Positions 2,003 to 33,343 of a stretch of DNA of 64,000 nt are shown here, piece after piece. The translations under genes were made by a program, and so were the position numbers. The first letter of the stretch is position 1. The number at the start of each line of letters is the position of its first letter. The stretch comes from a virus. The stretch covers positions 32,001 through 96,000 of IMG/VR virus record IMGVR_UViG_3300026521_000527; one strand, 5' to 3'. Below the pieces are notes generated by a model. It saw only the letters and a program-made list of their open reading frames with translations. It ran no database searches and was not told where the DNA came from.

Positions 2003-4459
2003 ATGCAATCTACATTTAATCAAACTCTTGATAAATATGAAGATATCGTTCGTATAAATATGAAAGTTACGAACCCAACTCTTCTTAAATCGGGGACGCT
2101 TGGAGTTATTACTAACTATATAGCTAATTTAAAATTCGATACTTATCAGTACTATACTAAAATTTTTAAAGAAATGAATATAGGATTGGCTGAGGATTTT
2201 AAAAGTCTTCTTTTCCATAGCACAATATACGATACAGAAATCGAATTGGCGAAGCCAGCGACTTTCGGAGTTAGTTTTATTATACCTGAGATTAACCTCA
2301 GTGAAATTAAGTACTTAAAATACATTATTCCAAAGAATAAAGAATTTACATCAAGAGAAGGAATCCCTTTTATAATCGAAGATGAAATAATTATTGAAAT
2401 AAGTCAGAATAATATTATAGCGTATACTTGGAGTGAGATTAATGGTAAACAGGAATTGACTGTCATTAATACTCAGAATCCCAACTCCCCAGGAACGACA
2501 GTAAATCTAATAAATTATAATAATGTTAGACAGTATCAAAGAACATTTTATAAATTTATAGTCCCAAAATATGATGTCGGGGAGACTTTTAACTTCAGTG
2601 TTACAATTCAAGATTATAAAATGTTTAAGAAATTAAATGCATGGTATAATCCAGATCCAAAAAATAATCCAATTAAATTATTCGAATTGCAAAATCAAAA
2701 CTCAGAAGACATAATGAGTTTATTTGAACTCAAAGATTTTGATATAAAATATTATAATTATGGATCTTCTAGATATGATCTTGACTTATTTTTAGATATC
2801 CAGCCAACTTCATTAAGATTAACGACTGGTAATGGTATTAATGGAATGCTTTTGCAACCAGATTCTGAAATAATAATTGAGAGTCAATTAACGCTAGGTG
2901 AGCAAGGAAATTTACCAAACATGGAATTTCTAGTTGAAGATATAATTATCCAAGAATTCAATCTAGATAATAAAATTCAATCTTACACTGGAAATATTAA
3001 TGGATTATCTATTGCTGGCGGAACTGGTGGTCAGAATATTCAAGATGTTAAAGATATTCGTAGAAATATATTTGATAAAATATCAACACGAAATTCAATT
3101 ATAACCGAAAATGATTATGAGAAATCATTTGCTTATAATGGAGTTGAGCCTTTTGTCGATGCGAAATTTATAGATGCAAAATCATATATATTTTTATTTA
3201 ATGTATTAAAATCGCAAGATATTATTATTGACACAACCTCAATAAATATTCAAGAGTATATTATAGCAAATGATCCGTTCTATCCAAAATACGATTACAA
3301 TGGAAAAGAATTAATATCTCCCTTTTATTTTAAAAGAGTAAATACTAATGAAACTGAGGGATATATTGTCAATCCAGATGTAATATTAACTTTAACTTCT
3401 CCTGCTGGGACACCGAAAGAAACATCAATTGAATATTTAGTAAGCCTAAGTATTCAATATGACTTCAGTGCCAGAAAAACATATATAACCATTAAAGATG
3501 GTGCTAAATCAGGAACTACTTATAATTTTAAAAGTTCTGTGTTCAACTGCACTCTAGACTTTGGTAATAATTATAAATATGAAGTTAATACTAGATACAC
3601 AGATACGTATTGTATTATTAGAGACATCCTTAGAGATGTTCGTCTAGATGTTTATAATGAAGACGGTGCTTTTATTACAACATATTATGCTTTCGGTGAG
3701 TGGACACAATTAATAAAAAAACAGACATTTTTTAAATATTATAAGCATATTCCAGAACTAGAAGGTGTTGATGTTTATACGTCAGATGATGCATATTCGT
3801 ATTTGGATAATGCATTGGCAGATATATTAAACGATATTAATGAATTGGTGGCGGCCACTAAAGACCAAGGAGATGTTCCGTACTTATTAAGAGTTCCGTT
3901 CATAGACATTGAATTTTTTAATAGAACAGACTGGTTGGAATTTTATAGGTTAATTGATAATTTTTTTATGGTGGATTCATTGTATCCTAGAATTTCGTAC
4001 AATACGCGTGTTGCTCAAGCATTTTATAATACAATTGACATACCTGAGGTTTACCAACCGCTAATTTTTAAACAAACGTCTATGGGGGTAATGGATAAAC
4101 CCAAAATGAATGTTGAATTGGGCATAGTGATCGATGAGCAAAATCTTCTTTTATCAAAATTCAATAGTATTTTTGATTTTGAGATAGAAGTAAAATTAGA
4201 CATTGTAAATTATTTAAAAGACTATGAAGGTTTCAAAGTTGAGTTTTTTGAGACTGAACTCGAGACTTTTTTATACGGAAAATATAATTCGATAATTAGA
4301 AATATAGAATTAAAAAGTCCAAAGATGTTTAAAATTAACTCAGCTGATGAAATTTTTGCATTGATTAATGAAAATTTAGACTTAGATCATATGTTAAATT
4401 TCGTACCGAATTATTTTTCATATGATTATAATTCAATTCATATAGATATTACAACTTAG
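2003..4459 (+). CDS. Baseplate wedge subunit (T4 gp6/baseplate-J-like)
   Basis: 818 aa; LTTGNGING and AGGTGGQNIQDVKDIRRNI...RNSIITENDYEK match the conserved gp6/J segment. Confidence 0.7.
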   Translation: MQSTFNQTLDKYEDIVRINMKVTNPTLLKSGTLGVITNYIANLKFDTYQYYTKIFKEMNIGLAEDFKSLLFHSTIYDTEIELAKPATFGVSFIIPEINLSEIKYLKYIIPKNKEFTSREGIPFIIEDEIIIEISQNNIIAYTWSEINGKQELTVINTQNPNSPGTTVNLINYNNVRQYQRTFYKFIVPKYDVGETFNFSVTIQDYKMFKKLNAWYNPDPKNNPIKLFELQNQNSEDIMSLFELKDFDIKYYNYGSSRYDLDLFLDIQPTSLRLTTGNGINGMLLQPDSEIIIESQLTLGEQGNLPNMEFLVEDIIIQEFNLDNKIQSYTGNINGLSIAGGTGGQNIQDVKDIRRNIFDKISTRNSIITENDYEKSFAYNGVEPFVDAKFIDAKSYIFLFNVLKSQDIIIDTTSINIQEYIIANDPFYPKYDYNGKELISPFYFKRVNTNETEGYIVNPDVILTLTSPAGTPKETSIEYLVSLSIQYDFSARKTYITIKDGAKSGTTYNFKSSVFNCTLDFGNNYKYEVNTRYTDTYCIIRDILRDVRLDVYNEDGAFITTYYAFGEWTQLIKKQTFFKYYKHIPELEGVDVYTSDDAYSYLDNALADILNDINELVAATKDQGDVPYLLRVPFIDIEFFNRTDWLEFYRLIDNFFMVDSLYPRISYNTRVAQAFYNTIDIPEVYQPLIFKQTSMGVMDKPKMNVELGIVIDEQNLLLSKFNSIFDFEIEVKLDIVNYLKDYEGFKVEFFETELETFLYGKYNSIIRNIELKSPKMFKINSADEIFALINENLDLDHMLNFVPNYFSYDYNSIHIDITT

Positions 4460-4477
4460 AATAGGAGATGACCAGAT

Positions 4478-7400
4478 ATGGCAGATTTTGATAATAGTAT
4501 AGAAGATTATGGAAATGATACACAGACAGATTCATCAGGTGATGCATACCTTGACCAATCTGTTAGCTCGATGACTATTGAAGATTTAAAAAATTATATA
4601 GATTATTTAATTACCAGAAGTGGAATATTAACGGCTGATGAAATAGAGGCTAAAGTTCAAGAAATTGCCAGAGCATCTGGTATGATGTCAGTGCAGGAAA
4701 TTCAAAATCTAGTAATGCTTACGCTAAATAATGCTCAAGCTTTGACTAGAGATACTGCTGAAGAAATAATCAATCTTAAAGTTGCTAAAGCAATCCTTGA
4801 TTTAAATGATAATAAAGATTTTATCGCTGATGTAAAATCTCAATTAGAGTTAGAAATAAACAGAGTTCGTGAAGAACTCAATTCAGCTAGAAATGATTTC
4901 CAAGCAACTGAAGATGACTTGGAATTGGTAAAACAAGAGTTCAAATTCAACCAAGAGAATGTAAAAAGAAGTCTAAATCTTTTCGAAAGTCTTTTGAATA
5001 GTTCTCTTGAAAATAAAGAAGTTTATAATTTATTATCAATTGAAAGAAATACAAGAGCTACTCAGATTGATGAAGTTAGAACAGATATTTCTACAATCGA
5101 GTCAAAATTAACTGAAACATTTAATAGTATAGAAAAAAAGTTAAATTCCCAAGGCAATCTTTTTAAAATCCAGGATACTAACCTTAAAAATACTCTTGAT
5201 ATTCTTAAAACAGAATTCGAGGGCAAAATTAAGTTAATTGAGAATGAAGTTCGTGATGCTGGTGAGATGCTAAGTAGTCTAATGCTTAGCACATCTGATT
5301 TAACATCGAAACTTCAAGCAATTAACTCAATCGATATGACTGAAGATGGTAATGTAATAATTGCATTCCAAGATCAAGTTGATGGGATTCAAACAGATAT
5401 TAATAATTTAACTATAGAATTACAAGAAGCAGTAAGTAATCTCACGCAAGCTAGTTCTAAATTTTCGGATTTAGAGTCAAATGTTCAAAATGAACTCATT
5501 GCTAATAAAACTCTTTTGGTTTCTGAGCTTTCGAATATCAGTGGGCGTCTAGATATGGAAACTCAAGATAGAAAATCACATGATAATGCTATTTTAAACG
5601 CTTGGGTAGATTACACAACAGATGTTAATTCTAAAATCCAATTAATGAATTCAGAAATTAATAAACTTAGTACTCAACTAAATGAATTCCCTAGAGTTCT
5701 TGATGAACTTATTCAAGTTGAGCAAGAAGTTAGAATTAAATCTGATGAGACTCTTTTGACTAAAATGAATGTCGAGCTTCAAAAAATTAGAGATAATATT
5801 GATAATACAACCCTAAGAACAGATATTGAATTACTTAGCCAAAGATTATCAAGAGCAATTGAGAAGTATGATAAAGCAATTGTTCAAGAAATCAAGCTTA
5901 TGTTTGATACAATAAATAATGAACTTGTTAATGTAAAGAGTGATATTGAACTCAATAAATCAATTCAAAATGGAAATCTTAGAACTGAATCTACTTTAAG
6001 AGAACAAGGCGATTCAAATCTAAATCAATTGATTCAATTAGAGTCAAGTATTCGTCAAACGAGGGTTCAAGAAATAACTAATCTGGCTAATAAATTAGCT
6101 GAAGATGTTAATAGGCTTCAAATTGCAGTAGGTTCTGGAGATAATACTAATATACAAGATGCTGTTGATTCATTAAATGCCAGATATTTAAATGTTTTTA
6201 ATACAATTAATGAGTCTAAAGATAAATTTACAAAAGATATTACTAAATTAACTCTAGATTTTAAAAATCTGGATGATATCGTAACTACATTCAAAGAAAC
6301 ACTTCTTGATAATATTAAATCAGAAGCTGACGCAAGACTCGCAGGTGACAATGGAATTCAAGTGATTCTTAATAAATTATTGACTGATTTTAATAATTTT
6401 ATTGGTATTCTGGATCCTTCGAAAGTTAGTCTATCTAAAGTTTATGATACTATTGAGTCAGTCAGAACTGAACTCAATAAATTTAAAATAGATTTCGATG
6501 ACAATATCGAGTTAAAAATCAACTTAATCAATACATCTCTTGATGAAATTAAAAATACTCAAAGAGCTTATTCTAAAGATATTCAAACCGAAATACAGGC
6601 TAGAGAGACAGCTGACTTGAACTTAGATTCTAAAATTAGAATTGTAGATAATAAATTACCTGAATTAAGAGCAGAATTGAGTTCAGAATTAAGAATTCTT
6701 GAGTCAAATCTAACTGATTCAGTAAGTAAATTGACAAGCGACTTAGCTATTGAAACACAGGTGCGTGAAGATGGAGATGCTTCAAGAGAAGCTGATTTCA
6801 ATGCTTTTAAAGATAACGTTGATCTTAAACTAAATAATTTTAATACCGCTCTAAGTACTGAGCAAGCCGACAGATTAAATAGCATATCTGATCTTACTAA
6901 TTCAATCAATAGAGAAGTTCAAGAAAGAACAGAAGTTGTTACTAATATTGAAATAGCTATCGCTAATGAAACACAAGCAAGAGCCAAAGGTGATGCCGAT
7001 CTTAAAAAATTAATCCAAGCACAGAACGCTACAATTCAAAGTATTCTATCAAGTGAAAGTGAAATAGATCTTGAAAACCTCCAAGCAGTTTTAGATATTG
7101 TAAAATATTTAAATGAAAATCCAGACGCTAATCCAACAGCCGAACTTCTAGAAGGGTTGCATTCAATAGAAGAAAATTTAACAACTTTAGTTGAAAATGA
7201 AGCTCAGTTAAGAACACAAGCCGATGGTATTTTAGACGGTAAAATTGGATCATTGAATTCAAAAGTTCTTGAAGAAGCTCAAAAGAATATAGAAGAATTC
7301 AGTAGAGTTAGAAATGAACTTAACACATCTGTTCAAGATTTAATTACTAAAATAGATGCTAGCCTTGTATCAGCAACTGATTTAATTAATACTGAAAAAC

Positions 7401-25359: not shown

Positions 25360-25386
25360 CGATCGGTGAGGTATCCTCACCGATCG
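25360..25386. repeat. Perfect inverted repeat (12-bp arms, 3-nt loop)
   Basis: cgatcggtgagg-tat-cctcaccgatcg just downstream of the JAB gene. Confidence 0.9.
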
Positions 25387-25394
25387 TTTATTTT

Positions 25395-26843
25395 TTAACC
25401 AAAAAGGGAACCCATTACTTTCCCAAGCCCAGTTAAACCATCATTTTCTGATTTTTTTGCATCAACATCAGTTGCATCAGTTGCATCATATATTTCAATA
25501 GAATCTTTGTCACTTGATATCAAACATGAATTTACTTGATTGATATCATAATCAAGTGTTCTCATTACGGATCTGATCTGTGGATCAGTGTAATGTTTAT
25601 ATTTTAACGCTTTAACGAAAGCTGCAGTATCTTCAGGGGTTGCACTTCCATCCACCCCAAATTTTTTAGGATCTAGTCCCAAAATATTCAGTTGTCTTTT
25701 CGCCTGCTGTTCTTTAAAAACAGGTCGTGTTGTTTGTGACAATTGAGTAGATTCATTGATTCCATCATAGATATCATCATAACCATCATAATCATATCCA
25801 GTATATATATTCCCTTTCCCAACACCACCTGAATATCTTGATGTATAATTGTAAGTTCTAGCCTTTATAAGATTCGGATCCATTATAAGGATCGGTTCAT
25901 ACTCACTGACCGTTAAAAATTCACTCAGTACTCTTTGAAGCTGCCCTTTTACAAAATCAACATCTTGTACTGGACAGTGTTTTGATTCCAGAACTCTAAA
26001 GTCAAAAATATTTTTAGCTTCCTCATTAACACCAGATTCATTGGAATCTGGTGTTCTAAAGAACTCATCGTACATTTTGATAACGGGAACATTTTCATCA
26101 ACCTCAGCGTCTTGTACAATAAAAGTCATTGTAGGCATTTCTGTATATGTACCATCAATACCACCATCTTCAAGTAAATTTACATTAACAACTTGTGTTT
26201 CTGTAACAACTATTTTAGTTGGTGTGTTAGTGCTAGGAATATACATAACACTATCTGTTTGTATTTTATCCTCTGCTACAGCGTTTCTAAAGATCACACC
26301 AGGATTCTCTGCTTTATTATCTCTATCAATTGTACTGAATCCAAAATCACCTGGATGTCTATGAATTGAACCCATCTCAAGTTCACGGGCTTCTAGTTCG
26401 AAGCCCCTTTCGATAAACTCTTCTTTTGGAAAAGCCTCTGCAAATTTTGCAACAAGTTGATCAGAAACAGGAATCAGTTGGTTTGAGATCTCACTAACTT
26501 CATCCAATGAAAAACTTACACTTGCTGTTGTAACTTCTTGAGAGAAGTTAAAGAACACAGTAGGTATTGTAAATACCATTCTTTGTCCTGTTTCCTGATG
26601 TTTAAATATCAGCTGAAGTCCTCTATAATGGACTTGATATTCTGCACCACCAGCTGCTGGTAAACCAAGGTCACGAACTTGGTTTAAAAGTTTTTGACTA
26701 TAAAGTACAACATTTAAAGTACTATTGCTTTTTCTTGTACTCGGTGTTTTTTTAACTCCAAAATAACTACCTACTTTTTTACCTATTCCCCATTTAGCCA
26801 TATTTTTTCCTTTATTTTTTTTTGATTTTTTTCTTTTTGCCAT
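25395..26843 (-). CDS. JAB/JAMM (MPN+) metallopeptidase-domain protein
   Basis: VVLYSQKLL...GGAEYQ (catalytic E) and GSIHRHPGDFGFSTID (HxH-x6-SxxD); Y/G/D-rich linker and helical C-terminal region. Confidence 0.75.
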   Translation of the reverse strand: MAKRKKSKKNKGKNMAKWGIGKKVGSYFGVKKTPSTRKSNSTLNVVLYSQKLLNQVRDLGLPAAGGAEYQVHYRGLQLIFKHQETGQRMVFTIPTVFFNFSQEVTTASVSFSLDEVSEISNQLIPVSDQLVAKFAEAFPKEEFIERGFELEARELEMGSIHRHPGDFGFSTIDRDNKAENPGVIFRNAVAEDKIQTDSVMYIPSTNTPTKIVVTETQVVNVNLLEDGGIDGTYTEMPTMTFIVQDAEVDENVPVIKMYDEFFRTPDSNESGVNEEAKNIFDFRVLESKHCPVQDVDFVKGQLQRVLSEFLTVSEYEPILIMDPNLIKARTYNYTSRYSGGVGKGNIYTGYDYDGYDDIYDGINESTQLSQTTRPVFKEQQAKRQLNILGLDPKKFGVDGSATPEDTAAFVKALKYKHYTDPQIRSVMRTLDYDINQVNSCLISSDKDSIEIYDATDATDVDAKKSENDGLTGLGKVMGSLFG

Positions 26844-26863
26844 TTTTAGAATTCCTCTTTATA

Positions 26864-27946
26864 TTAATCTGCATCAGATATTTGAGGATTTCTGGCCGCA
26901 CTGTATGCACCCCAAATCTCCGCACTAAATTTTTTACAAGCCATTATATATGGATATGTGCTTTTTTTCCAAAGAATATTACCGTAAAACATACTATTTA
27001 GGTTAACATTAGAAAGAGTCAACCATCCACTTCGTGCAGCTTTATTTTCAGAGCCAGTACAAACACTACCAGCACTTCTCAAATAAGACTCATTAATATT
27101 TCCACTCATCATCGGTGAAATATTATAACCAACCTGGTTATCCTTAGTTGGTTTTTCTATATACACCAATCCATAATATGGCGTACTAACGCCATCTGAT
27201 ATCTTTTGGAGCGGGATTAGAAGAGATTCTGGTTGAATACCACTTTGACTTATTTCTCTTATATTTATTTTAAGATTAACATCGTTCACTGATGAAATCT
27301 GAGGTCGTTCGATCATATTCAACATTTGATCTTTATCAACACTCACAGATCGTTCAATAATAGATGGTGACATTATTATATTTGGTGTCAGTTGCAAAAA
27401 CTTTACCAACTCATTAAAATACTCATCAGTTTTTGATTGAAGTGTTTCTGGTGCAATAGCCTCTTTAAAATAATTAACTCCCTGAATTCCATTACGCCAT
27501 TCATATATATGGAGTTTTCCCGTTTTTGGAAGCTCTATGATATTGGCATTATACATAAATGCAATTAAAGGGTGCAGTGGATTAATATTAAAGCCATCTT
27601 CAGTTGTCAGAAGGCAACCATATACTCCTTCATTTTGAGCAAGCTGTTGCAAAAATACTCCGATATCAATTGCATCCGAATTATATTCGATCGTTGTGAT
27701 CGCATCTTTACATGTCGATCTTATTTTATCCCATGATATTTTCGAATCATCATCCACTAATGAAAAAGATGGTAATGTATCACTAGTTATTGATGGTCTA
27801 ATATTCAACGGGATAAAAATATCTCCTTCTTGATTTAGCATCTGATTTCCCTCTTGCACTTCATCTGAAGTATATTTATTGATTGCATCCTGTGTGGACA
27901 TAATCAAAGAATGTGCTAAAATGGTTGTAGGTTGATTAAATTTCAT
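26864..27946 (-). CDS. Prokaryotic E2-like (Prok-E2 family D / PRTRC-B-like) protein
   Basis: C-terminal SPMMSGNI...GSVCTG resembles the P..N...G.VC.G core of prokaryotic E2s; lies between the ThiF and JAB genes. Confidence 0.6.
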   Translation of the reverse strand: MKFNQPTTILAHSLIMSTQDAINKYTSDEVQEGNQMLNQEGDIFIPLNIRPSITSDTLPSFSLVDDDSKISWDKIRSTCKDAITTIEYNSDAIDIGVFLQQLAQNEGVYGCLLTTEDGFNINPLHPLIAFMYNANIIELPKTGKLHIYEWRNGIQGVNYFKEAIAPETLQSKTDEYFNELVKFLQLTPNIIMSPSIIERSVSVDKDQMLNMIERPQISSVNDVNLKINIREISQSGIQPESLLIPLQKISDGVSTPYYGLVYIEKPTKDNQVGYNISPMMSGNINESYLRSAGSVCTGSENKAARSGWLTLSNVNLNSMFYGNILWKKSTYPYIMACKKFSAEIWGAYSAARNPQISDAD

Positions 27947-27955
27947 ATTTTCTCC

Positions 27956-28957
27956 TTATCCTAAAATATCCCACTCATCTTGAGTGCTCAGTTCAACAGC
28001 GTCTGGGTTAGCTTCTAAGTACTCAGCCATATTGAAAGTAAATATGTCAGAGTCATGTTCATAATCCTCACCTGTTCTTATCCTATTTGCCTCTTTTTTA
28101 ATCCAAGCAGCTGTTGCAACTTGAAAATTTAAAAGTAATACTGGGATATCGATACTCCCATAAGTTTCATTACCTAACTCGGTATTAACTACCGGCTGAT
28201 ATGTTAAATCAACTGATGTTCCTCCATGCCCAAAGAACATAAAATTCTTATCTTCAAGAAGCTTTCTGGTCTCAAAATCAGGTGCACCAATCATATTGTA
28301 TCCATTTTGAGCAAATAGATCAATTGCTTTTTGATCAACATACTCATTTTTATTCATTGGGCTAATGTCCTCAACCAACCATTTAAGATTTTTGGTGAGC
28401 ACTAATTTATATATACCACCGATCTCATCATCAATATCCCTAACCGTACTAGCACTTGTCTCCATCACAATATCTTCTCCAATTCGTGGGATATTTGTGA
28501 ACTCCAAGAAGTCCGCCTCCCTAACATGCATTCTATGGAAGATGCCTGGCACTTCTAATTTCATGCACCAGTATTGCAAGTTATAGAAGAAGTTAATCAT
28601 TGCACCGCCCATACCGATAGACAATATTTTATATTTGCTATCTTTTATGACTTTTAAATCATCTCTTGTTGGGACAATATCTAAATCTCTTATAATCTTC
28701 CAAAGCAACTTGTTATTGAAATGTCTAGGATATTTTCCATAGTCCTTTTTAATCTTTAAAAATAATCTAGCTTCCAATTTAGCTAAATTTGGATTCATGA
28801 TATTGAATCCAGATATATCCTGGAATGAGAAATTTTGCGGGTTTGCGTAATAATCAATGACAATTTTATTGTCATCAAACGGTAGAATTGAATTCGGTTT
28901 GTATCTCATTCTGAGATTCTCTTGAATCTCATTTTTAAGATTTATATCTGTGCTCAT
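27956..28957 (-). CDS. ThiF/E1-like adenylyltransferase
   Basis: KILSIGMGGA (GxGG), READFLEFTNIPRIG (D-x-D..E..N..R), IGAPDFETRKLL (Mg-binding D..R); ~100-aa N-terminal extension. Confidence 0.75.
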   Translation of the reverse strand: MSTDINLKNEIQENLRMRYKPNSILPFDDNKIVIDYYANPQNFSFQDISGFNIMNPNLAKLEARLFLKIKKDYGKYPRHFNNKLLWKIIRDLDIVPTRDDLKVIKDSKYKILSIGMGGAMINFFYNLQYWCMKLEVPGIFHRMHVREADFLEFTNIPRIGEDIVMETSASTVRDIDDEIGGIYKLVLTKNLKWLVEDISPMNKNEYVDQKAIDLFAQNGYNMIGAPDFETRKLLEDKNFMFFGHGGTSVDLTYQPVVNTELGNETYGSIDIPVLLLNFQVATAAWIKKEANRIRTGEDYEHDSDIFTFNMAEYLEANPDAVELSTQDEWDILG

Positions 28958-29040
28958 GTTTTTCCTTTAAATTTTTTGATTTCTTACTAGTTTCAATTCC
29001 AATTAAAAATATTTTTTAAGCTTAAAAAATAAAGAAGATT

Positions 29041-29116
29041 GAGGTGGGACGGGGGTGTCCTCTGACACCCCAACTCCGATAGATCTACATTAGATCAAAA
29101 TCGTTATCCCCACCTC
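29041..29116 (-). ncRNA. Candidate structured leader RNA (three-way junction)
   Basis: GC-rich island in AT-rich DNA: outer stem gaggtggg/cccacctc, inner hairpins cgat..gatcta-atg-tagatc..atcg and ggggtgtc-agag-gacacccc; upstream of the E1 gene. Confidence 0.4.
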
Positions 29117-29132
29117 CTACAATCACTTCCAT
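29085..29132 (-). CDS. Putative 15-aa peptide MEVIVGGGDNDFDLM
   Basis: AAGGAG-N5-ATG directly after the stop of 29143..29712; TAG stop; below the ORF track cutoff. Confidence 0.4.
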   Translation of the reverse strand: MEVIVGGGDNDFDLM

Positions 29133-29142
29133 CTTATCTCCT

Positions 29143-29712
29143 TTATAAGCGGATATTTAAGATCCATTTCATTTCTGAAAGACCTTTCAATCCACCTAGA
29201 TTTACTGCACCATAAAGCATATCTAGGACCTTTTTATGACGCAGATTAACTGGCAACATAATCCATTTCTCAAAGGTTTCACGATCATTAAGTTTAAGAT
29301 CGTTATCTTTAAGAACATTCGGCCACAAATCAGTAGCCGAAGTTTTCTCCAAGTCAGTATTGCTTAGAAAATGCAAGTACTTTATACTTGGAAAAAATGG
29401 ATTTTGCTCCTGAAGAACTTCTCTACTATACATGTAGAAACTTATATATTCTTCAGGAGCCAATTTTTTATACACTGGAATAAAGCGTTTAAAGCGATCG
29501 CCAGCTTTAGCTTTAAACGCTTTCGGGAAATGTTTCTTCAGTGTGTAATACTGAAGACCATCTTTCCCGCGATAAATTATCCGAGGTCCTTCTTCGAACT
29601 CTTTATCATATCCCAGGATGACGAATGGTTCCTGCCATCGCTGAACCAGCTTTTTTTTAAGCTGGTAAATATCATCAGCTATGTTCAGGAACCATTCAGG
29701 AATCTTGGCCAA
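29143..29712 (-). CDS. Hypothetical protein (first gene upstream of the E1-E2-JAB cluster)
   Basis: 189-aa ORF, SD AAGGAG, downstream of the candidate promoter at 29776. Confidence 0.75.
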   Translation of the reverse strand: MAKIPEWFLNIADDIYQLKKKLVQRWQEPFVILGYDKEFEEGPRIIYRGKDGLQYYTLKKHFPKAFKAKAGDRFKRFIPVYKKLAPEEYISFYMYSREVLQEQNPFFPSIKYLHFLSNTDLEKTSATDLWPNVLKDNDLKLNDRETFEKWIMLPVNLRHKKVLDMLYGAVNLGGLKGLSEMKWILNIRL

Positions 29713-29793: not shown

Positions 29794-30069
29794 TTATTGA
29801 TTTATTCTAAAATTCTTCCAGTCGAGTAATCTATCAAGATGTTTGATTTTAGAGCGCAGTAATTTATGAATCGCTCTAGATAATGGGTTATTATAATTTT
29901 CGGAAGCTACCTCTATATTGAATTCTTCTTGAAATCTTTTTTCCAGAAGAAGGATATCCTTCTGAACTTTTTCAATCAATGAATCTATAGAAACTCCATG
30001 AAAATCACAATACTCTTGAATATCTAAACCATAAATATCATCGTATGAAAATTCATTTGGTTTACTCAT
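29794..30069 (-). CDS. Hypothetical protein
   Basis: 91 aa, ATGA overlap with the topoisomerase gene. Confidence 0.7.
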   Translation of the reverse strand: MSKPNEFSYDDIYGLDIQEYCDFHGVSIDSLIEKVQKDILLLEKRFQEEFNIEVASENYNNPLSRAIHKLLRSKIKHLDRLLDWKNFRINQ

Positions 30070-31450: not shown

Positions 31451-33343
31451 TTATATTAAATTGATGTCGAAATTATCTATTGCTGAAGAAATTTTTCGTT
31501 TTCTAAAAGCAATGTCATCACTCAACCAACCGATTAATTCAGCTATCTCTTCTTCAGTGTTTTCAGACTCTTTTAAATGCAATGGTTCTAATAATTCATC
31601 AAGAGTGTATCTTTTAAATAACTCTTTCCATTCCAACTTCTCTAGAGTACCAAGTCCTTTTTTATAGTCAAATATCAACCCAGCTTTTTTATTTTTCGCT
31701 TGGAATTCTTCCAGCTCTTGCATAGAGAATATAAAACTATGTATTTTTCCAATGCCAGAATAAACAGTAATTAATGGGGTGATGAATCTAAATACTTTAC
31801 CCTCGTATAAATATTTAGGAAAATATTTATAAATAAACCCGAGCACCAATCCTGCGATATGGTCTCCGTCTACATCCATATCAGTAGCTATAGCTATTGA
31901 ATCGTAAACTAGATTTTCATTATCATTTTTCGATAAATCCAATCCAAGAATTGTCGCCAGTTGTTTTATTTCAGCATTTGATAGAACTTTTTTACTATCT
32001 TTTATAACATTGAGAATTACACCCTTCAATGGGAAGAAACCATTTTCCGAACGTCCTATTCTAGATATAATTGAAGTAATTGCAGTATCTCCTTCAGCTA
32101 TGAATAATCTCTTTGGGTCATCAGTCGCTGGCCAGAATTTTTCAGGGAGATCTTGTTGCTTCGTCGCTTTCTTTAACGCTTTGCTTTCTTCAACAAGCAT
32201 CTTTGCTTTATATAAATCAGTAATTGGATCAATGATATTTTTATTTTTATAGACTCTGTTGATAAATAACAGGAACTTCTTTTTAATTTCTGGAGAATTG
32301 AAATCAAGATATCCTGTTATCTCAGCCTGGGTGTTCGTGAGGAATTCTTTCGTCTGTCCATCAAATTTAGCCCCAGGAAAATTCCTAAAAAAGATTACAC
32401 AAGACAATTTATTTTTTATGTCACCTGGCTTAATAGACTTAAATTTTCTAACTAGTTTTTCACGGAGAGCACCAGTTAATTGACGCACAAGAAATTCTAC
32501 ATGATTTCCACCTTTTTCTAACCATAAGCTATTAACATATGAATGAAATCTAAAATCGTTTGAGTCATTTGGAACACAAGCCATAAAGAAATCATCAGTG
32601 CTAAAAATTTCAAAAGTTTCATTAAATAATCCTATAAATTTTTTAGGATCGTATTTTACAACTCTATTATTAAATTTAAATCTAATCTCGGGATAGAGAA
32701 CACTGAGATTTATTATTCTTTGGTGTATTAGTGAAGTATGTAAATCGTCTATTTCTTTAAGCCCAAACCGTTCTAAATCCGGTTCGAAAAGAACTGCAGT
32801 TCCTTGTGTCTCAGTCTTGAGTTCAGTAATTGATGTTGAACTTAAGTTATCTTTGAACTCAACACGAAGTCTTTTTTCACCATCATCTGTTACACCAATA
32901 AATTTTTTACTGAATACAGTAGTTGCAAAAGATCCAATACCATTCATCCCAGCGGAGACTCTTTTATCATCATCTTCGAAATTTGAACCAGCTCTTGCTT
33001 GTCCCCAAGCTATTTCTGGAAGCCAATGACCACCTTCTTTTTTAACAGGGATCCCGTAACCATTATCTTGGACTTTAACTCTTTTTGGGGTTATATTGAT
33101 ATTAATTTCATTTGCAAATTTGAAGTTACTTTTTATGGCAACATCTATACTATTATCAATAATCTCATTAATAATCTTTACAAGGCCGGGAATGTATAAA
33201 TATTCTGTCCATTGAAAACAGGAACCTTTTAATAAAAAGGATTCCTGTTTAACTGTCTGCAAACTACCAATTATATTATGTCCTCTTATTAATAGCCAAT
33301 CTCTATCCGAGAGAACTTTTATATCATTTGAATTTTTACTCAT
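31451..33343 (-). CDS. Type IIA DNA topoisomerase, ATPase+TOPRIM subunit (T4 gp39+60/GyrB-like)
   Basis: EIIDNSID, DNGYGIP, GMNGIG, FDGQTKE, IAEGDTA, FPLKG, ATDMDVDGDHI. Confidence 0.95.
   Translation of the reverse strand: MSKNSNDIKVLSDRDWLLIRGHNIIGSLQTVKQESFLLKGSCFQWTEYLYIPGLVKIINEIIDNSIDVAIKSNFKFANEININITPKRVKVQDNGYGIPVKKEGGHWLPEIAWGQARAGSNFEDDDKRVSAGMNGIGSFATTVFSKKFIGVTDDGEKRLRVEFKDNLSSTSITELKTETQGTAVLFEPDLERFGLKEIDDLHTSLIHQRIINLSVLYPEIRFKFNNRVVKYDPKKFIGLFNETFEIFSTDDFFMACVPNDSNDFRFHSYVNSLWLEKGGNHVEFLVRQLTGALREKLVRKFKSIKPGDIKNKLSCVIFFRNFPGAKFDGQTKEFLTNTQAEITGYLDFNSPEIKKKFLLFINRVYKNKNIIDPITDLYKAKMLVEESKALKKATKQQDLPEKFWPATDDPKRLFIAEGDTAITSIISRIGRSENGFFPLKGVILNVIKDSKKVLSNAEIKQLATILGLDLSKNDNENLVYDSIAIATDMDVDGDHIAGLVLGFIYKYFPKYLYEGKVFRFITPLITVYSGIGKIHSFIFSMQELEEFQAKNKKAGLIFDYKKGLGTLEKLEWKELFKRYTLDELLEPLHLKESENTEEEIAELIGWLSDDIAFRKRKISSAIDNFDINLI

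Follow-up and report, generated by a model that had tools for sequence, protein, structure and literature searches.

A virus-borne cassette of E1-like, Cys-protein, and JAMM genes and its candidate KSG-ending modifiers

The Bub system, formerly known as '6E', fuses a ubiquitin-like protein (Ubl) with an E2 in BubAB and a JAB protease with an E1 in BubCD (Ye et al. 2024, PMC11601596). BubCD cleaves BubAB after a conserved glycine, and the Bub E1 has no catalytic cysteine (PMC11601596). Sulfur-carrier systems comprise an E1-like enzyme, a JAMM protease, and a small C-terminal-glycine carrier with a removable tail (Iyer et al. 2006, PMC1779556). Here, we analyze a cassette of three genes, encoding an E1-like protein, a protein with an invariant cysteine (the Cys-protein), and a JAMM metalloprotease, in a 64,000-nucleotide stretch of viral DNA (positions 32,001 to 96,000 of the IMG/VR record IMGVR_UViG_3300026521_000527; hereafter the window, whose numbering is used unless another record or locus is named). 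To our knowledge, the characterized prokaryotic systems with E1, E2, and JAB components, namely Bil, Bub, and the type II cyclic-oligonucleotide-based antiphage signaling system (CBASS), are all host systems and mostly act against phages. As modifiers, they use either beta-grasp proteins or the C-terminus of the target itself. At this locus, the same enzymatic logic is found on the virus side, in hundreds of sequence clusters of uncultured phages, and in relatives the operon is paired with small proteins that end in Lys-Ser-Gly (KSG). The operon looks like a virus-only, previously undescribed form of ubiquitin-like tagging, and we found no description of such a phage system in the literature. 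Below, G000 denotes the source phage record, G001 a complete relative of 281 kb, and L-numbers homologous metagenomic or IMG/VR loci.

Three conserved genes in one operon

The cassette consists of three minus-strand open reading frames (ORFs) for the E1-like protein (27956..28957, 333 amino acids), the Cys-protein or 'E2-like' protein (26864..27946, 360 amino acids), and the JAMM/MPN+ metalloprotease (25395..26843, 482 amino acids), with intergenic gaps of 9 and 20 nucleotides. An earlier sequence-only reading had described them as consecutive, tightly spaced genes for a ThiF/E1 domain, a prokaryotic-E2-like protein, and a JAMM protease, and had quoted motifs for each. The arrangement is as described, and the quoted motifs, made up of columns conserved in each family, go beyond chance. 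No model in Pfam, PHROGs, NCBIfam, or PADLOC recognizes any of the three proteins, even with the threshold relaxed to E ≤ 1; scans that took in neighboring proteins as well gave nothing useful, and the PADLOC and NCBIfam system models for Bil, type II CBASS, and PRTRC likewise return no match to any cassette protein at that threshold.

The gene order E1-like, Cys-protein, JAMM persists among relatives to identities as low as about 25% (G001/L002, L019-L021, L027, and L045-L048), so that the synteny sought as a check on the trio was found. In the relative of 281/285 kb (35-40% identity), the topoisomerase and Mre11/Rad50 flanks are kept along with the cassette. In the distant loci L027, L045, L046, L047, and L048, hidden Markov models (HMMs) built from our alignments confirmed all three families at E-values of 1e-15 to 1e-97. 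Metagenomes and IMG/VR contigs are the source of the homologues, and several of these contigs measure 160-290 kb. Searches of 50,697 phage records by blastn and tblastn, in which near-identical records were possibly masked, gave no match to the region, the E1-like protein, the JAMM protease, or a distant JAMM homologue. A scan of 185,579 prokaryote species genomes with the JAMM alignment recovered no relative and no clue to a host or prophage.

On the evidence of its modeled fold and its motif, rather than of a family-model match, the third gene certainly encodes a genuine JAMM/MPN+ protease, as the sequence-only reading had proposed. Among 70 homologues, all metagenomic, H161, H163, S170, and D173 are invariant and E68 is conserved in at least 90%, which completes the E/HxH/S/D motif. 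In the phage protein, the motif reads E...HRHPGDFGFSTID; its sole deviation from the textbook H-x-H-x(7)-S-x-x-D is a spacer of 6 rather than 7 residues between HxH and Ser. An AlphaFold model built from the 70-sequence alignment reached a mean predicted local distance difference test score (pLDDT) of 80.5, with a core above 90. Foldseek returned 67 matches to this model in the PDB at E ≤ 1e-3, and all of those listed are MPN/JAB proteins. VIA, which is independent of Foldseek, placed MPN domains in 36 of its first 37 rows, the other being a STIL domain at rank 35. Its top match was P. furiosus JAMM1 (Z 10.4, rmsd 2.8, 127 of 129 residues aligned), and further scores included Sst2/AMSH (Z 9.9), the JAB-E1 fusion BubCD (Z 9.8), Cap3 (Z 9.1), and the bacterial Ubl-deubiquitinase 8tyy (Z 8.9). 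None of 35 JAMM members matched any Pfam model at E ≤ 5, the JAB and Prok-JAB models included, and a profile search against PDB sequences found nothing.

The protease starts with a tail rich in Lys (residues 1-14), which is followed by the MPN core (~35-245), a linker, and a small C-terminal helical domain (~372-448) with generic structural matches only. A ribosome-binding site (RBS), AAGAGGAA, precedes the first ATG of the ORF. Residues 1-14 are encoded by positions 26802-26843, and a second RBS-like sequence, AAAGGA, stands before Met15. Most aligned homologues carry comparable Lys/Arg-rich tails of 14-60 residues ahead of a conserved Met. Possible roles for the tail are the provision of acceptor lysines, nucleic-acid binding, or an alternative start.

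The alignment of the JAMM model with Cap3 and 8tyy bears on a counter-defense role, in which the protease would strip host Bil, type II CBASS, or Bub conjugates while the E1-like protein and the Cys-protein serve as decoys or redirect the host modifier. The confinement of the system to viruses favors this role, as does locus L045, where an Apyc1 homologue and a PARP-domain gene come after the cassette. However, archaeal and eukaryotic MPN proteins match the protease equally well or better, and the cassette brings its own conserved modifier-like genes. Its usual setting is among replication and recombination genes rather than anti-defense islands, and PADLOC gives no match. We consider such a role distinctly unlikely. 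In L045, the two genes directly downstream of the cassette (4380-6349 of that locus) encode an Apyc1-type anti-Pycsar metallo-beta-lactamase and a WGR-PARP protein; this is the only locus seen in which the cassette borders counter-defense-like genes.

The first gene very probably encodes a divergent ThiF/E1-type Rossmann enzyme, a conclusion on which four independent, individually weak signals agree. In an ESM Atlas feature search, the protein scored 0.91 to BilD_N/ThiF clusters, and the Atlas's own model (pLDDT 0.60) gave TM scores of 0.43-0.47 to six ThiF/E1 families over residues 96-316, all named rows being ThiF. When members were scanned singly against Pfam, ThiF was the top family, with matches from 3 of 28 (best E 0.0061). 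A PDB profile search with 21 diverse members was headed by UBA5, the E1 of UFM1 (E 0.039). Finally, hhalign against E. coli MoeB and ThiF gave E-values of 0.0037-0.023 over 174-194 colinear columns, with probabilities of 2-9%. A first profile run against PDB sequences had returned FtsZ-type glycine-loop matches only, which we took as chance.

Two alignments define the conserved positions of this enzyme: one of 28 close homologues, none of which carries a Pfam domain, and a second of 21 sequences that includes members of 20-25% identity from other phage clades. An N-terminal domain of ~95 amino acids with the conserved pattern [LI]R.RY...S.....DN precedes the Rossmann adenylation domain (~96-316), in which the phage protein carries SIGMGGAM, EADFLEFTNIPR, and GAPDFETR. 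G115/G117/G118, N155, R158, K184, G224-A225-P226, and R231 are invariant across the 21-28 homologues at 20-87% identity, and the diverse set adds N122, H244, E264, Y266, G267, and N277. The loop G115-x-G117-G118-A-M, invariant in both sets, aligns with GLGGLG of MoeB/ThiF. The conserved FE147xD...[FT][ST]N155..R158 and K184 align with LDFD..LSNLQR of MoeB and FDYD..LANMNR of UBA5; these positions comprise the acidic residue that ends beta-2, the SN..R arginine, and the downstream Lys of the ATP-binding signature. In the profile alignments, the final IK.LA helix corresponds as well. Neither alignment contains a conserved Cys column, which agrees with the earlier remark that the usual E1 thioester cysteine is missing. 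In L019 (4402-8994) and L020 (711-5268), two E1-like paralogues (~342-354 and 347 amino acids) flank the Cys-protein and JAMM genes, which hints at a heterodimeric E1 in that clade.

The middle gene belongs to a large uncharacterized phage family whose identity as an E2 is unproven, although it may work like one. The protein has 14 close homologues, and a profile search of 1.84 billion representatives retrieved 300 sequences at E ≤ 1e-3, 226 of them at E ≤ 1e-10. Across 80 members at 17-33% identity, G110, N122, P256, N283, C296, G298, and S318 are invariant and H125 nearly so; in the phage protein, the motif around the cysteine reads SGNI...GSVCTG. Sequence and profile searches against PDB sequences found nothing, the ESM Atlas gave no usable match, and BFVD yielded one structural homologue, itself uncharacterized.

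A confident AlphaFold2 model of the Cys-protein (pLDDT 78, predicted TM score 0.78) was assigned secondary structure with DSSP. The C-terminal half runs through helices, four strands, the S-G-N283/C296 loop, a short helix, and a long helix. In the model, this order of elements is compatible with that of a minimal UBC domain, and 'GNI...C' recalls 'PNI...C'. C296 and N283 lie in a loop after the four strands, as modeled, without a His-Pro; the spacing between Asn and Cys is 13-30 residues versus ~8 in E2s. An hhalign comparison of the three families with the Cap2 and Cap3 proteins of two CBASS plasmids (E 0.34-0.57) was discarded as powerless. It also missed the match of JAMM to Cap3 despite the structurally proven fold and therefore says nothing on the E2 question.

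KSG-ending proteins as candidate modifiers

The sequence-only reading had seen no beta-grasp Ubl gene in the cassette. ThiS and ubiquitin HMMs indeed find nothing in the 137-kb G000 record, but a family of KSG-ending proteins and a micro-ORF, both candidate modifiers, had been overlooked. Directly upstream of the E1-like gene, L027 encodes a protein of 49 amino acids ending in ...KSKSGF, L046 one of 43 ending in ...DSKSGL, and L047 one of 40 ending in ...TSKSGC. In the same place, L014 carries a tandem arrangement, in which a 21-residue mini-unit is followed by a 56-residue unit and a three-residue tail, VFA. L016 (5158-5898; also L004) encodes a 246-residue polyprotein directly upstream of the E1-like and Cys-protein genes. 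It consists of a 20-residue mini-unit, four units of 54-57 residues that each end in SIQATAKSG, and a final Lys. Partial copies of this polyprotein gene lie directly upstream of the E1-like gene in L013, L015, and L018.

The source phage itself encodes a KSG protein of 60 amino acids ending in ...IQGRAKSGF (G000 117489-117671, minus strand; 1494-1676 in locus L023), with its own RBS and after a strong terminator hairpin. Its orthologue in G001 (276525-276680), at the syntenic position, has 51 amino acids and ends in ...AKSGKDL. When aligned, the KSG proteins share an N-terminal amphipathic helix, a variable linker of Ser, Thr, Gly, and Ala, and a C-terminal stretch of ~18 residues ending in (A/S)KSG. 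In the single-unit proteins of G000, G001, L027, L046, and L047, one to three residues follow the glycine, as they do in L014. Judged from these sequences, the tandem layout is that of polyubiquitin genes, and cleavage would fall after the glycine. In L012 (1239-2339), the Cys-protein begins with an in-frame extension of ~20 residues, ...LPVLAKSG, just before the usual Met; by analogy, this extension would be a modifier mini-unit fused to the 'E2', paralleling BubAB. The linkage of such a family to the operon gives the finding weight, and the candidate modifier is not ubiquitin-like yet is organized like polyubiquitin.

The length of 40-60 residues, the low-complexity linker, and the null HMM searches argue against a beta-grasp fold for the KSG proteins. 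Two further ideas about this gene set were tried and rejected. KSG as a prohead-protease site was set aside when [AG][KR]SG was found in just four G000 ORFs, one of them of the modifier family, and in one fitting G001 ORF. A DUF7566 (PF24450) gene for 121-126 amino acids precedes the KSG gene in L027 (682-1062), L046 (3300-3665), and L047 (3269-3637); it was rejected as a core part, being absent from G000-G002.

A small carrier with a tail after its glycine, together with an E1-like enzyme and a JAMM protease, comprises the known parts of sulfur-carrier systems (PMC1779556). On this model, adenylation of the KSG protein would lead to a thiocarboxylate at its C-terminus, as in ThiS, MoaD, CysO, and QbsE, with the JAMM protease trimming the tail like QbsD or Mec+ and the Cys-protein relaying or using the sulfur, for example in nucleic-acid thio-modification by a phage whose DNA would already be modified in other ways. 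An E1-like enzyme without a thioester cysteine would resemble a simple adenylase, and other nucleotide- or DNA-modification genes are present in the form of QueC-like and QueE-like ORFs in both G000 and L016. Yet the candidate ends in K-S-G rather than G-G and cannot be recognized as a ThiS/MoaD protein. In no locus is the cassette accompanied by a rhodanese, cysteine desulfurase, or PP-loop thiolase, and sulfur transfer is not known to employ carriers made as tandem polyproteins. Sulfur transfer by this cassette thus appears improbable to us.

In the window, the slot in which relatives carry the KSG-modifier gene is occupied by a 15-codon micro-ORF (MEVIVGGGDNDFDLM; 29085..29132, minus strand) with an AGGAG ribosome-binding site. 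Its nucleotides are 100% identical in L005, whereas the three enzymes of the same phage pair are 74-87% identical. In five further loci of the same clade (L002, L007, L008, L009, and L010), ORFs of 23-36 amino acids with an RBS occupy the same place and follow the pattern [IVY]Y.G.D.[DE][DE]...hydrophobic end. The group is characterized by a hydrophobic/Tyr strand, a glycine, an acidic run, and a hydrophobic end, a pattern that resembles the polyprotein mini-unit together with the opening residues of the unit after it. From this resemblance, the micro-ORF may encode a minimal substrate of the JAMM protease and E1-like enzyme, a precursor, or a regulator that descends from an ancestral gene for a modifier. 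The acidic run and hydrophobic end also resemble the C-terminal tails of single-stranded DNA-binding proteins.

Between the micro-ORF and the E1-like gene lies a GC-rich hairpin with a T-run (29024..29077, minus strand) that is terminator- or attenuator-like. Relative to L005, its outer stem is conserved and its inner stem replaced. The RNA from 29010-29150 is predicted to fold at -49.8 kcal/mol (z = -4.76), with none of 200 shuffles as stable, and in the predicted structure the RBS region of the micro-ORF and its GGAGGUGGGG codons base-pair with nucleotides that lie downstream of the ORF. According to this model, read-through into the E1-like gene could be under the control of micro-ORF translation. 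A role as a pure attenuation leader was set aside as the main explanation: in L002 and L010 the hairpin is absent and the ORF abuts the E1-like gene, with the peptide pattern kept.

Substrates of 15-60 amino acids are very small, and the KSG proteins and the micro-ORF product could instead be precursors in a pathway akin to that of ribosomally synthesized and post-translationally modified peptides (RiPPs). Ribosomal peptides are the substrates of MccB and PaaA, which belong to the ThiF family. By their example, the E1-like protein would activate the peptide carboxylate, the JAMM protease would process the precursor, and the Cys-protein would tailor it, yielding a modified free peptide rather than a protein conjugate. 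The conserved N-terminal amphipathic helix of the KSG proteins is a feature also found in leader peptides, and multi-core tandem precursors occur among these loci. The conserved extra domain of ~95 residues at the N-terminus of the E1-like protein could clamp a peptide, and the absence of a catalytic cysteine from that enzyme fits as well. Against peptide maturation stands the nature of the conserved part, an extreme C-terminus with a glycine and a disposable tail, which is a hallmark of ubiquitin-type modifiers. The C-terminal residue is not Asn, unlike that of microcin C, and no locus contains a transporter, immunity gene, or other RiPP tailoring gene. The fusion of a mini-unit to the Cys-protein in L012 better fits the Ubl-E2 precedent. 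Maturation of a free peptide is, in our judgment, unlikely.

Weighing a proposed phage-specific conjugation system

We favor the reading of the cassette as a phage-specific, ubiquitin-type conjugation system with a modifier that is not a beta-grasp protein, and we regard this proposition as evenly balanced between true and false. In its full form, an E1-type enzyme and a new Cys carrier would conjugate a tiny, largely disordered modifier, a third kind beside ubiquitin and Pup and so far confined to viruses; to this extended claim we assign a likelihood slightly short of even. The modifier would be a protein of 40-60 amino acids, largely of low complexity, made either with a tail of one to three residues or as a head-to-tail polyprotein. 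The JAMM protease would cut after the glycine of KSG, releasing the units and exposing a C-terminal Gly. The ThiF-like enzyme, lacking a catalytic cysteine of its own, would then bind the modifier and adenylate this glycine. Cys296 would attack the adenylate to form a thioester, from which the modifier would pass to an amine, probably that of a lysine, on phage or host targets. The JAMM protease may undo the linkage as well. In this phage, the micro-ORF would specify a minimal junction of strand, glycine, and acidic tail, perhaps serving as a second tiny substrate or as a regulator.

Several observations count against conjugation. The E1-like family falls below the Pfam threshold for ThiF (PF00899), the phage protein has no Pfam or NCBIfam match, and the statistics that link the family to known E1s are weak (E 0.0037 at best, with an hhalign probability of 9%). 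All three profile alignments place the Mg-binding Asp of the D-N-x-x-x-R motif (D130 in MoeB; DN in UBA5) at Pro226, which is invariant. Adenylation activity is not assured, since the canonical position holds a Pro and the neighboring Asp, D227, is not conserved; it is Asp here and in the most distant clades, and Thr or Asn in many relatives. A one-residue shift in the sequence alignment may account for the correspondence of Pro226 with the Mg-Asp. For the Cys-protein, Foldseek returned no PDB match at E ≤ 1e-3 and ranked UBC7 46th (E 2.1). An exhaustive VIA search gave a best Z of 4.3 among unrelated rows, and VIA rescoring of the Foldseek candidates was headed by UBC13/UEV1a (Z 2.7 over 103 residues) and UBE2A (Z 2.3), which is too weak. 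None of the 80 members matches any Pfam family, and no E2 model matches at E ≤ 0.1. The KSG gene of G000 lies 58 kb from the operon, outside the window, and that of G001 is likewise unlinked; in the L016 clade, the JAMM gene stands apart from the other two, elsewhere on the same contig. The candidate modifier is short and of low complexity, and we know of no E1 that activates such a protein. No target or E3 is on record for the module.

The sequence-only interpretation is therefore partly supported, with the E1 likely, the JAB protease certain, the E2 unproven, and the synteny confirmed. The ThiF type of the first protein is likely from the Atlas, Pfam, and hhalign results, whereas the Asp of the quoted GAPD motif varies among relatives. 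The cysteine proposed for the second protein is indeed invariant (C296 in 80 members), although no clear match to a UBC fold (best Z 2.7) and no match to an E2 HMM accompanies it. The roles that reading suggested for the module, namely modification of the phage's own proteins, hijacking of a host Ubl, or removal of defense-related conjugates, are possible ones.

The invariant Pro at the canonical Mg-Asp position is also what would be expected of a pseudo-E1 acting as a non-catalytic scaffold that binds ATP or a peptide. In such a module, the task of the JAMM protease would be maturation of the KSG polyprotein and the micro-peptide, with other phage proteins as possible further substrates; the Cys-protein would serve an unrelated function, and no conjugation would take place. 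The best Atlas family match, BilD_N, is the N-terminal part of BilD and may represent its inactive half, and the E2 fold of the Cys-protein is not demonstrated. However, the glycine loop, Arg158, Lys184, His244, Glu264, and about 10 more positions are invariant over 20-44% identity, which argues for an active rather than a decayed site. The invariance of Cys296 and Asn283 in 80 members and the strict linkage of this family to the E1-like gene would be difficult to account for if the two proteins had no chemistry in common. Proteolytic processing with no conjugation accordingly strikes us as rather implausible.

Should the favored chemistry of a conjugated KSG modifier be true, the substrate range of E1-type enzymes would be wider, and a new Cys-carrier fold would join the E2 concept. 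The question would also arise of what the phage tags during infection, be it its own replication and virion proteins or proteins of the host. The parts of the cassette are small, and reconstitution should be easy.

The record that contains the window is that of an uncultured jumbo phage. It spans 136,864 bp, is 49% complete by CheckV, and has a GC content of ~30%; since the relative G001 is complete at 281 kb, the source virus is a jumbo phage. A 12-bp palindromic hairpin directly after the JAMM stop codon (25360..25386, no strand assigned; from a terminator scan and the sequence) marks the 3' boundary of the three-gene unit. Two topoisomerase II subunit genes lie upstream of the operon and Mre11- and Rad50-like genes downstream, in keeping with the mostly replication and recombination genes that neighbor the cassette elsewhere. 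Between the topoisomerase II genes and the micro-ORF are genes for proteins of 189 (29143-29712) and 91 (29794-30069) amino acids, both kept in G001 and both without a family match.

Comparison with known systems

Among systems in which a ThiF-like enzyme acts on peptides, MccB/microcin C and PaaA/pantocin share with this locus a very short peptide gene beside the enzyme gene, a hairpin between the two, and an extra N-terminal domain. They differ in that there is here no C-terminal Asn and no export or immunity gene, the partners are a JAMM protease and a Cys-protein, and the NCBIfam and Pfam models are unmatched. Pup-PafA offers a parallel for the modifier: Pup is small (~60 amino acids) and, like the KSG proteins, is probably disordered, contains a short helix, and has a C-terminus rich in or ending with Gly, which is trimmed before ligation. 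In pupylation, however, a glutamine-synthetase-like ligase attaches Pup by way of a side-chain carboxylate, and the pathway contains no E1, Cys carrier, or JAMM protease.

Precursors of polyubiquitin and other Ubls resemble the KSG polyproteins in their head-to-tail units ending in Gly, with one extra residue after the last unit (Lys in L016) and one to three after single units. The KSG units are nonetheless not ubiquitin-like; they are much shorter and of low complexity, end in KSG rather than RGG, and follow an initial mini-unit of ~20 residues. Type II CBASS, with the E2-E1 fusion Cap2 and the JAB protease Cap3, also does without a dedicated beta-grasp Ubl, Cap2 activating the C-terminus of another protein, and Cap3 is a structural match to the JAMM model (Z 9.1). 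Our cassette, by contrast, lacks a CD-NTase and an effector, keeps the E1-like protein and the Cys-protein in separate genes, and has a dedicated family of small candidate modifiers.

Bil comprises BilA (Ubl), BilB (E2), BilC (JAB), and BilD (E1), and the logic of modifier, E1, Cys-E2, and JAMM is common to both systems; the nearest Atlas families are BilD_N/ThiF, and 8tyy, a Bil-type complex of Ubl and deubiquitinase, matches the protease model at Z 8.9. The E1-like protein described here is, in contrast, one small domain without a cysteine, BilA is a beta-grasp protein, the PADLOC models are unmatched, and Bil serves the host against phage. Bub differs in being bacterial and defense-linked, whereas the present cassette is found on viral contigs only and is accompanied by no DUF6527/BubE-type protease. 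Bub modifiers consist of one to three beta-grasp domains rather than a low-complexity KSG protein of 40-60 residues, and the Bub E2 has a recognizable UBC fold and uses Ser (oxyester), while the protein found here has an invariant Cys and no detected UBC fold. Features shared with Bub are an E1-type enzyme without a catalytic Cys, a JAMM protease that matches BubCD at Z 9.8 and would here, too, cleave after a Gly, and, in L012, a fusion of modifier to E2-like protein.

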